From: a virus
Taxonomy: Duplodnaviria > Heunggongvirae > Uroviricota > Caudoviricetes
Strand: one strand, 5' to 3'
IMG/VR virus record: IMGVR_UViG_2839610755_000005
DNA length: 43,830 nt
The first letter of the stretch is position 1; each line of letters begins with the position of its first letter. Positions 18,001 to 21,000 of the stretch are shown here, piece after piece. A program made the position numbers.

Positions 18001-21000
18001 AAGATGGATAAATACTTCATCTTCATAAAAGACCGGATGCTCTGTGCTGCATTCGTCCAGTGCGTTATGGATTGTTGCCATCTTTTTATCTTTAGGCGGG
18101 GCACGGATACGTAGAGTTGGCGCAGCCCTTCGCCACACAAGCCCCACAGACGACAACCAGCGGCGAATGGTTCCAGCATGTAACAGGCAGCCGGTTATCT
18201 CATTGATTTTTATTGTCAGCAGTTCTGTACTCCAGCGTGAATAATTGTAGCCAAAGTCGCGAGTGAATATTTTACCTGTTCACGTAATAGTGTGTAGATA
18301 TGCGCAAACGGCCAGCGGCGGGCTCGCTCGGCAGGTAATGATTTCAGTCCCTCAACACCCGACTGTGTGAACTAGTTAATCCAGCGCCCAACAGAGGAAC
18401 GGGCGCAGCATAGTGTGCGGGCAACGTCGCTGACACGGTCGCCCCGGTGCAGCATCAGCATGGCTGTCAGCCTTTTATGGATGGCTTTCTGTATTAGGCG
18501 TCGTTCGTCACGGGAAATTGGTGGTATGATCGACATTGCTCAGTCCGGTTGGTGATTTGTATTGATTTGGCGATTGATCAGATCGCACAATCGGGTTGAG
18601 TTCCCTCTAAATGATCTACTATTCTGCGCAGCTATTTAGTGAGTATATATTTTATGCTTATAAATTAGATTAAAATAATCCTACAATTATTCTGATGGAG
18701 TATTGCTGTGGAGGATGGCTTTTTGTTAATTATCGAAAAGTAAGATATATGCTTTAGGGATAAAATTATGCCATTTTCATTTAATTTGTCTTCTGGAAAT
18801 TACTTGTCAACACAAGATGTTGAAGTTTTACAACGTGCGACCAGAGATCATCAAATGGAAAGACTCACAATAGGAGAAAGATCGTTTTCTGTTCGCTATC
18901 AGAGTGCTATGGACGCTTTTATTGTAGATCCTGTTCAAGGGGAACTATATTCGGGTTTAAGCCATACAGAACTAGCCGATATCATTAGATTGGCTGATTC
19001 TGTTGAAAATCAATTGAATGGAGGCAATTCATTTCTTGATGTATTCAGTACATATATGGGGCAGGTTATTTCTGAATTTATGCATAGTAATGATAACAGA
19101 ATTGAATTGTTACAGCGGCGATTACATTCATGTTCATTTTTAGTTAATATTGAAGAAATGTCTTACATAGATGAAGCATTACAGTGCCCGATTACGCTGG
19201 CAATTCCTCAACGAGGTGTTTTTTTAAGAAATGCTGAAGGTTCCAGAGTATGTAGTTTATATGATGAAATGGCTCTTTCTCGTATAATTAATGATGGGAT
19301 GCATCACCCACTAAGCAGAGAGCCAATAACATTATCAATGCTTGTGGCCAGAGAGCAGTGTGAGTTTGATTGCAGTATCGGTCACTTTACGGTGAGGAGT
19401 GATTGTTATTCAGTGTAGACTCGGTACACGATTTTGTGTGAAGAGACTCTTATTAAAAGTTAGCATCAAAGCGGTCATCAAACTTGATAATAAAGTGACT
19501 CATTGCTATTCGCTGGTCCTTAAGGGATGTATCGTGAACTGAATAGCAAGTAGCCACCGTCCTGATTTCAACGCATTATCAGGCGCTTCTGAAGCGGCAT
19601 ACCTGCATGACAGGATGAGTGCAAAGGGGCGCTGTTACGATAATGCTAGGGCGGAAAGTTTCTTCCACTCACTAAAAGTCGAATGCATTTACGGCTAATA
19701 TTTTATGAGTCGGGAAATAATGCAGACGGCTGTGTTTAATTAGATCTAGTGTGATTACAATCGGTGGTGCCGACACAGTACTTGTGGCTGTCTCAGCACG
19801 GAACTGTTTTGAAAAACAGAACCTTGATTAGGGCTGTGTCCACATTACGTAGGTAGGATCACCCCACAGGCACCACATGTCATGCATGGATTAGGATTGA
19901 ATGATAAATCGTAAAGAAAACTGCAACACCTCGCGTGTAGCACCTGGTTAGCGAACTTTCGAAAGTACGAGTATTGTATGATTTCCAGCAGTTATCAATT
20001 TTACGTATTAATCAGTGAATCAACAACTCGTCAGCAGACTCTCTTTGCTGTTGAATTTTTTGGAACGTGTATAGGGCAGAAATTTTTGTTTTGGGACATG
20101 GTTGGGACGCCGTAGTACATACGAACTCTGCCGAATAACGTATGATATTATTTTTTAATCTCTTGGAATACATTATAGAAACAGAATGCTCTTGGGCGAT
20201 TTTTAGTGATTGTTTAAATAGCCCTGTCATGCAGTTAAAGTGGCGGGCATCCTCTTCAAGGATGGTGATCCTCAACCGCACCCATTTAGGATGCGACTAT
20301 TGTGGTAGAACAATGTAAACCATAATTAATCTGCGTGCGGATACATGCTTCATAGATAGGATATTCTGGTTTGGGTTGTGAATGTGTTGGTCATCGAGTG
20401 GACAATAAGGTAAGAGGAGTAACTCCTGCAAAACAAAAAAAGAGTTCAACAAAATCAATCAGTTAAAAACACGAGAGATCTGTATAAAAAAGCATCGTAA
20501 ATTCTGTATTTTTCCTTTAAATATAATATGTTATTGAGTTTTGTAAAATCTACCAGTGTGGTACATGGATATCGATACCACGGCTAAGTATAAATCTGGT
20601 GTTACTACCGTGAAAGACTCGGTACGACTGGATCCGTGGGTGTTTATGTTCTCCGCAGGATATCGTTTTTAATTTTCTCTGCAAAACCTCTGCAAAACCC
20701 CTCTGCAAAACTGGTCATCAAATGACCAGTTTTTTCCATTCCTTACCGCGTGCGTCGTTGTAAATATCGATCATTTTTTGATTCGAATGGCCTAGCAAAA
20801 TTTTGGTATCAACCCCCTGCTCTCTGAACAATCGCTCTGATAAAGATCTCTGCTCATGGAAAGAGGGAGGGGTGCCATTAGCACGCCAGTTGTAATCCAC
20901 AGAATCCCGGGCTTTTTTAAATGCAACGGTTAATGTTGCTGGCTTAACCATCCCGCCGCGCTTAGCTGTCCCTTTCGCGTGATGGTGGTGCAATAGCCAC

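Follow-up and report, generated by a model that had tools for sequence, protein, structure and literature searches.

An ompW-derived fragment as the probable attachment site between tandem lambda-like prophages of Escherichia coli O157:H7

The prophages that occupy the ompW gene of Escherichia coli were named PPompW, and their 121-bp attachment site (att) was defined, by Nakamura et al. (2021, PLoS Pathog, PMC8112680). In the accessible part of that paper, a PPompW is defined by an integrase more than 90% identical to that of the PPompW of the O145:H28 strain 112648, the phage site (attP) is confirmed by sequencing polymerase chain reaction products of excised circles, and O157:H7 strains, represented by FRIK2069 (the "type a1" cluster), carry two PPompWs in tandem. 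The junction between tandem ompW prophages is already known from this work. Here we examine such a junction in IMG/VR record IMGVR_UViG_2839610755_000005, a stretch of 43,830 nucleotides of Caudoviricetes DNA which, taken at its full length, is called the window. Its positions 20423-20735 hold an ompW-like 3' fragment with short repeats on both sides and the end of an integrase gene (int). This interval is, very probably, a complete attachment site between two lambda-like prophages lying in series at the 3' end of ompW in E. coli O157:H7.

The likeness to the PPompW group extends to the integrase, the att and the neighbouring genes. The integrase is 99.5% identical in amino acid sequence to the PPompW intE of the deposited records (LC5678xx), and the 121-bp ompW-derived att lies at 20554-20674; these records annotate the stretch as a "duplication due to insertion of PPompW". 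The effector locus and the sequences within it called attB-in-PP_1 and attB-in-PP_2 are shared as well, and the type a1 cluster of FRIK2069 contains the window sequence with 100% identity over 25 kb. The published description, as far as its accessible part goes, differs in two respects. It equates att with the whole duplicated 121 bp and does not mention a narrower core, arm-type repeats or the architecture of phage 21. It also labels the ompW-like sequence next to int in other clusters a potential "attB-in-PP_3", whereas in the window this sequence is flanked by both phage arms and is attP-like. The 28-bp core, the arm-site detail and the parallel with phage 21 described below are small additions, of which the arm-site detail may be new relative to that part of the paper.

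Phage 21 and e14 restore icd, as the title of GenBank record M61865 also indicates. The integrase of phage 21 is 50% identical over its full length to the one in the window, and the succession of elements is shared: int stop codon, three direct 11-bp repeats, hairpin, replacement gene 3' end and P arm. In phage 21, three copies of GTTTTGGGGAA follow int, then come the hairpin and an icd 3' fragment that converges on int, while a fourth copy lies 120 bp beyond the fragment, compared with 119 bp in the window. The two systems differ in their target (icd, not ompW), in their repeat motif (TTCCCCAAAAC instead of TCTGCAAAAC) and in the N-terminal domain of the integrase, which is only 45% identical. 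The literature searched contained no usable paper on arm-type sites of phage 21 or e14. M61865 itself (L059) gives minus-strand coordinates 537-700 for the icd pseudogene, yet the icd-like sequence is found at about 2211-2374. Counting the 2910-bp record from its opposite end turns one pair of numbers into the other, so that the annotation seems to have been mirrored.

With lambda, the integrase shares 36% identity, the catalytic residues, an arm-binding domain and an adjacent xis gene. In both cases three direct arm repeats abut the int stop codon, the P-arm copy has the orientation of lambda P1 and the P arm contains a consensus sequence for integration host factor (IHF). In contrast to lambda, the P' repeats of the window are about 110-145 bp away from the centre of the core, because the ompW 3' end sits in between. 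Moreover, the target lies inside a gene whose end the phage replaces, and one P-arm copy was found. The lambda arm motif, C/AAGTCACTAT, is unlike that of the window. Lambda (poly)lysogens have the structure BOP'-prophage-POP'-prophage-POB', and the order of sites in FRIK2069 matches it exactly. However, FRIK2069 carries two distinct phages, with different immunity, replication and cargo regions and with P arms that are alleles of 92% identity. Phage phi80, whose att maps near trp/tonB, was dropped as a source of the site: the integrase is of the phage 21 and lambda types, and ompW is clearly the target.

The structure of the junction emerges from a four-way alignment of the window with the uninterrupted ompW of CREC-544 (attB), the ompW-int junction of a single lysogen (attL) and the phage-end/ompW-fragment/yciE junction of an O145 single lysogen (attR). 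A 28-bp block, CAGTGTGGTACATGGATATCGATACCAC (20554-20581), is identical in all four sequences, and strand exchange must therefore fall inside it. The block contains an inverted repeat, GTGGTA / TACCAC, whose arms are 12 bp apart and could represent core-type sites around a putative overlap region. To the left of the core the window follows the attR flank, that is, the phage P arm, and to the right it follows the attL flank with the phage-type ompW end, three repeats and int. Since phage arms flank the core on both sides, the window contains an attP-type P-O-P' site. Such a site would be expected between tandem prophages. Escherichia phage 204576, deposited separately (CP025907), has the entire attP together with int in one piece, from a diverged P arm through the core to the P' arm. 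That the site might instead be an unoccupied attB inside a prophage ("attB-in-PP_3") is not supported, both flanks being phage arms with arm-type repeats and not target-type. The first-pass annotation of the window, made from its sequence alone, had proposed a phage that integrates at the ompW 3' end, seen in a P-O-P' type arrangement abutting other prophage DNA. This interpretation is supported.

Complete genomes place this junction in its context. The window is E. coli O157:H7 prophage DNA; it is 100% identical to strain FRIK944 over the site, and its positions 9000-33900 are 100% identical to about twenty O157:H7 genomes. Of 5426 complete E. coli genomes, 91 contain the complete junction, so that a mis-assembly can be dismissed, and in all 91 an ompW 5' region contiguous with the fragment is absent. 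The order in FRIK2069 is yciC, full-length ompW, int, prophage 1 with the nleA/espM1/nleG effector locus, the junction, int, prophage 2, a 126-bp ompW 3' fragment, yciE and trp. The outer sites are found at 1776352-1778166 (ompW and int) and 1884815-1885506 (ompW 3' fragment and yciE), so that the sites read attL, attP-like, attR, and the strain is simply a double lysogen in tandem. F1273 agrees with it on the left side; the right part of its prophage 2 has been swapped with a ydfJ-locus prophage. Intact ompW and the outer junctions could thus be located in genomes (FRIK2069 and F1273) that share the same 25-kb sequence.

These comparisons also indicate which prophage contributed which arm. 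Positions 17212-20674 match, with 99% identity, the right end of an O145 PPompW prophage that is present singly and abuts yciE; for the P arm proper (20435-20553), identity to the attR side of a single O145 lysogen of this type is 97-99%. The P arm of prophage 2 itself, present at the attR of FRIK2069, is a different allele with 92% identity. The junction therefore combines the P arm of prophage 1 with the P' arm of prophage 2. This fits recombination of prophage 2 with the attR of a resident prophage 1, an order of arrival that we infer.

A straightforward scheme would account for the whole arrangement. The attP of each phage would include the final 121 bp of ompW in a diverged form, and the phage integrase would swap strands within the 28-bp stretch that is identical to the host gene. 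Integration would rebuild ompW at attL with the phage-supplied end adjoining int, and would leave the native ompW end at attR, at the opposite end of the prophage. If another phage with this specificity then recombined with the attR of the resident, the new junction would take its P arm from the resident and its P' arm from the newcomer. The three copies of CTCTGCAAAAC next to int and the single copy 119 bp across the core would be bound by the N-terminal domain of the integrase, with an IHF-type site in the P arm as a probable bend and a hairpin that would end the rebuilt ompW. The coordinates of the features concerned are collected in Table 1.

Table 1. Features of the junction and of the adjoining prophage DNA, numbered along the window.
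Feature	Coordinates	Strand	Remarks
P-arm arm-type site (candidate)	20423..20434	+	CTCCTGCAAAAC; motif YCTGCAAAAC at 20425-20434; left edge of attP
Remaining P arm, upstream (left) prophage	20435..20553	+	Conserved A-rich block; perfect IHF consensus AATCAATCAGTTA at 20453-20465
Common core	20554..20581	+	CAGTGTGGTACATGGATATCGATACCAC; from attB/attL/attR/junction alignment; holds GTGGTA...TACCAC inverted repeat
121-bp ompW-like 3' segment	20554..20674	+	"att" of PPompW phages (PMC8112680, accessible part); contains the open reading frame 20556-20672
P'-arm triple arm-type repeat (candidate)	20677..20711	+	TCTGCAAAAC at 20678, 20689 and 20702; spacing 11 and 13 bp
Hairpin, 12-bp stem, then T run	20707..20735	.	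AAAACTGGTCAT/ATGACCAGTTTT; likely ompW terminator on +
Integrase, downstream (right) prophage	20718..21848	-	Lambda-type tyrosine recombinase; N-terminal arm-binding domain
Excisionase (xis), downstream prophage	21826..22074	-	Pfam Exc 1.3e-7; RefSeq annotation excisionase
NleG-family type III effector gene	18768..19418	+	Pfam T3SS_NleG 9e-45; annotation of identical FRIK944 region

The open reading frame within the ompW-like segment encodes 38 amino acids, VWYMDIDTTAKYKSGVTTVKDSVRLDPWVFMFSAGYRF followed by a stop, and matches positions 158-195 of the 195 of Pfam OmpW (E 3.7e-12). No ompW 5' part was found in the in-frame sequence upstream of 20556, which is riddled with stops. The fragment is 99% identical to the ompW ends at attL and 82-84% identical to native E. 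coli ompW. Its stop codon ends at 20672, that of int occupies 20718-20720, and the gap between them measures 45 bp. Within this gap Tandem Repeats Finder detects three copies of CTCTGCAAAAC (20677-20711), an array that ends 6 bp short of the int stop codon. A search of the whole window for exact matches to the 9-mer CTGCAAAAC returned four on the + strand (20426, 20679, 20690 and 20703) and one on the - strand (10032), i.e., five compared with a mean of 0.72 in shuffled windows, none of 100 shuffles having reached five. The fourth copy of the repeat ends 119 bp before the core. The first-pass annotation had described just this layout: an OmpW-like C-terminus of 38 codons lacking its 5' part, 45 bp from the int stop, with three tandem repeats in the gap and a fourth copy, now placed at 20423-20434, about 130 bp upstream. 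Pfam match, upstream stops, coordinates and repeat array all agree with it, and the similarity to ompW on which it relied is present. The 9-mer on the - strand was rejected as an arm site; it is a chance occurrence inside an unrelated, lambda-type att relic described further below.

Between the fragment and int, folding of 20707-20735 gives a clear hairpin (-17 kcal/mol, z -5.7 on the + strand; -14.9 kcal/mol, z -4.3 on the - strand), although it is absent from the output of a simple terminator scan. It overlaps the third repeat and the final int codons, and is likely positioned as the terminator of the rebuilt ompW on the + strand. On the other side, the P-arm region runs on into the NleG/EspM1 effector locus of the upstream prophage, of which the NleG gene is the last coding gene. 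Its presence there means that the DNA to the left of the junction is prophage and not chromosome.

The integrase of the downstream prophage is a lambda-type (heterobivalent) enzyme, as judged from its arm-binding domain and catalytic residues, from repeats on both arms that are distinct from the core, and from the accompanying xis gene and IHF site. Pfam places Arm-DNA-bind_1 (PF09003) on residues 2-71 (E 7e-22) and also matches Phage_integrase, while residues 14-375 of 376 align to the lambda Int structures 5j0n/1z1b (E 4e-55). The catalytic R, K, H-x-x-R, H and Y are kept: TGQR, KTG, HEQRSLS, LLGH and IY pair with their lambda counterparts in 5j0n. The xis gene overlaps int. A pattern match finds a perfect WATCAANNNNTTR at 20453-20465, and this IHF sequence is kept in 4 of 6 aligned P arms, the other two being one base off.

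On comparative grounds, the four repeats are most likely arm-type sites bound by the N-terminal domain of the integrase. A first argument comes from the P arm, where four divergent lineages could be compared (the window with prophage 2; phage 204576; prophage P-EibA with a viral contig; another viral contig). In all four, similarity stops immediately upstream of the fourth copy and the motif is invariant. It opens a near-invariant block, YCTGCAAAAC-AAAAAAGA-TT-AA-AAAATCA-CAGTTAAAAACA, that includes the IHF consensus, whereas the DNA between this block and the core drifts. A second, inverted P-arm site, TTTACAAAAC (20538-20547, two mismatches), was considered and dropped; matches of this stringency are equally common in shuffled sequence, and the position is not conserved in other P arms.

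The layout of the P' side is conserved well beyond ompW. In Kluyvera, Raoultella and another enterobacterium, where the integrases are 64-68% identical, three copies stand at the same 11/13-bp spacing against the int stop codon, with a one-base difference in the middle copy of Raoultella; the target in the last of these, the other enterobacterium, is not ompW. Viral contigs with the exact triple repeat comprise 41 loci, in 40 of which an int homologue starts about 45-70 bp after the repeats. The integrases of these 40 loci range from 45 to 100% identity, and the flanking sequences fall into at least eight unrelated types. In most of the distant integrases that share the motif, the N-terminal domain is 59-67% identical compared with 45-56% for the remainder of the protein. 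In phage 21, which has a different motif, the corresponding figures are 45% and 51%. Klebsiella phage Kp4865-4, whose integrase is 52% identical, has yet another motif, TTATCAAAAC, in three copies spaced 11/13 bp apart, with one further copy 118 bp from the opposite end of the record. Since phage 21 and Kp4865-4 share the 3+1 layout with motifs of their own, the motif co-varies while the layout remains fixed. The proposal of the initial annotation that the repeats are integrase arm-type sites on the P and P' arms is well supported by these comparisons, namely by the edge of P-arm homology, the conserved layout and the motif covariation. In the full-text literature, CTGCAAAAC was found only in unrelated primer sequences.

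Several points weigh against this view of the repeats and the junction. Only one P-arm copy was found here, compared with two in lambda. Integrase relatives in Kluyvera georgiana and Enterobacter bugandensis (L013, L017) have no repeats downstream of int. One of these two int genes is frameshifted and a foreign flank is common to both, as might be left by decay of the element or replacement of the junction. They were also dropped as covariation controls, their N-terminal domains being like those of repeat-bearing relatives and their flank looking decayed or replaced. Since the scan of viral contigs required an exact triple repeat, the frequency of repeat-less relatives is outside its reach. 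Finally, the window contains no chromosomal DNA and its locus is read from identical genomes, which place it at ompW (FRIK2069, F1273) but at mlrA in FRIK944, where the same segment sits in the mlrA cluster.

The organisation of FRIK944 (NZ_CP016625; 1841691-1891078 and 3098940-3206000; loci L063, L064, L001, L005 and L006) deserves a description of its own. A 38-kb segment identical to that of the window is found at the mlrA cluster, between the left part of an Stx1a phage and a DinI/nleG right end. The prophage at the ompW locus of the same strain has a PPompW int at its start and a ydfJ-type right end next to ydfJ.

This strain provides the ground for a different explanation, which we consider quite improbable for the window. 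The right prophage would have entered not at ompW but at the 96-bp "attB-in-PP_2" (19945-20040) of the left prophage, so that 20041-20717 would be DNA internal to the right prophage, including the 21-bp attB-in-PP_1 and the 121-bp ompW-like "attB-in-PP_3". Entry at the 96-bp site is the interpretation given, in the accessible part of PMC8112680, for the FRIK944 mlrA cluster and for ydfJ clusters. The FRIK944 segment identical to the window is indeed bounded by two 96-bp copies, 83% identical to each other (19945-20040; L006 14454-14549), which that part of the paper takes as attL and attR of a prophage-in-prophage. However, the adjacent integrase is 99-100% identical to the PPompW integrase for which an ompW attP has been experimentally verified. 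Moreover, single PPompW lysogens have at their right end a sequence 99% identical to 17212-20553, while the P arm that the right prophage itself carries in FRIK2069 is the 92% allele; 20041-20553 are therefore part of the left prophage. In FRIK2069, which shares 25 kb with the window at full identity, a clean tandem at ompW lies between two ompW att sites. The FRIK944 prophage at this gene lacks its own right half and ends at ydfJ, which points to a reshuffling of the prophages of this strain by homologous recombination. Such reshuffling can explain the mlrA cluster without integration at a 96-bp site, and the sequences suggest serial inversions between prophages in place of the integration event of PMC8112680. 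Given a PPompW integrase, left-hand DNA that belongs to the left prophage and phage arms on both flanks, the attB-in-PP_3 reading is not supported for the window sequence.

A further explanation, which we regard as very unlikely, accepts an attP between tandem ompW prophages but assigns the CTGCAAAAC repeats to Xis, Fis or a regulator of int expression, or makes them only a part of the ompW/int terminator. The third repeat does overlap the hairpin stem, and binding by the integrase is deduced from comparison. On the other hand, three direct repeats at the int stop and one beyond the core reproduce the P'1-P'3/P1 layout of lambda, and a lambda-type relic in the window (10167-10197) has its repeats similarly placed against an int remnant. 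The Xis and Fis sites of lambda are located away from int, in the stretch of the P arm that separates P2 from the core. In addition, the repeats persist in relatives (L016, L019, L028) whose hairpin is degraded. Finally, there is practically no chance that the fragment and the repeats are debris (a decayed ompW duplicate or a mis-join next to an unrelated int, with functionless slippage repeats): O157:H7 prophage ends are rich in insertion sequence (IS) elements and pseudogenes and the repeat unit is short, but this view is already contradicted by an identical junction in 91 independently assembled complete genomes (an assembly error common to long-read assemblies of different laboratories being very unlikely), by a fragment boundary that equals the attB/attL/attR core to the base, and by the number, spacing and position of the repeats next to int, which are kept down to 45% integrase identity and co-vary in phage 21 and Kp4865-4.

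With the site taken as an attP-type junction between two ompW prophages, the presence of a start-less ompW fragment between an effector locus and an integrase gene is explained, and the exact boundary of two O157:H7 prophages is marked. The downstream prophage keeps an intact int, xis and a complete attP-type site, so that in principle either prophage could be excised separately. The candidate arm-site motif and the fixed 3+1 architecture of the phage-21/PPompW integrase group could help to delimit prophages automatically. A note of caution concerns the 121-bp ompW-like sequences next to int in prophage clusters, which are attP-type junctions and not empty targets. Beyond correct annotation the site is of little importance, as it represents the ordinary outcome of two phages sharing one attachment site.

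Integration has a consequence for the host protein. In the phage-supplied end (ompW at attL in L003 and L008 compared with native L002), 7 of the 10 residues at OmpW positions 185-194 are changed, including N185K, L188S and GAQQH to VTTVK, while the final strand of OmpW is unchanged. Residues 185-194 presumably form the last outward-facing loop, if the usual topology of the 8-stranded barrel applies. Since the phage gene end replaces these residues, every PPompW lysogen makes an OmpW with an altered last loop. One may speculate that this loop has been rewritten on purpose, as a lysogenic conversion that alters a surface receptor and guards, for instance, against phages or colicins that need OmpW, and that it has not simply diverged neutrally. 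Colicin S4 is one of the colicins that depend on OmpW. In the same vein, the 1+3 arm layout, the P-arm spacing of about 120 bp and the internal attP might define a wider, phage-21-like integrase family with a readable arm motif NNN-CAAAAC, and the FRIK944 attB-in-PP_2 case might be an inversion product. Taken together, these suggestions are unlikely.

A few other elements of the window and of related records may be mentioned. The lambda-type att relic (9960-10210) adjoins a degraded integrase gene (10201-11085, - strand) whose product is 36% identical to the ompW-type integrase. It comprises P1/P2-like sequences (CAGGTCACTAAT...ATTGTGACTC), IHF consensus sequences at 9988 and 10147, and a P'1-P'3-like GTAAGTCATTATTGGTCAAAATAAAATCATTAT abutting the int remnant; the whole (9960-11085) looks like the relic of another phage's int-attP module within the effector locus. 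Nearer to the junction, the 21-bp attB-in-PP_1, GTCATGCAGTTAAAGTGGCGG, is present and unoccupied at 20226-20246, about 300 bp to the left of the core; it is given as a target of Stx2a phages in the accessible part of PMC8112680. The 96-bp attB-in-PP_2 at 19945-20040 is homologous to the K-12 ykgJ-ecpE intergenic region.

In Escherichia albertii NBRC 107761 (NZ_BBMY01000048; L012), a 99% identical integrase, the P' arm and the phage-type ompW end are found, but the sequence to the left of the core is neither ompW nor P arm. What we take, by eye, to be an rlmC (rumB)-like gene continues in frame into the ompW fragment (...ATARDWVRQLPVWYMDIDTT...), and this left flank could result from insertion at a secondary site or from a deletion. 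Lastly, compared with FRIK944, the window has a 1.3-kb insertion (1344-2653) with inverted ends, TGAACCGCCCCGG, in the tail-tip gene J of the left prophage; over about 500 bp it is 99% identical to an IS3-family element annotated in F1273.

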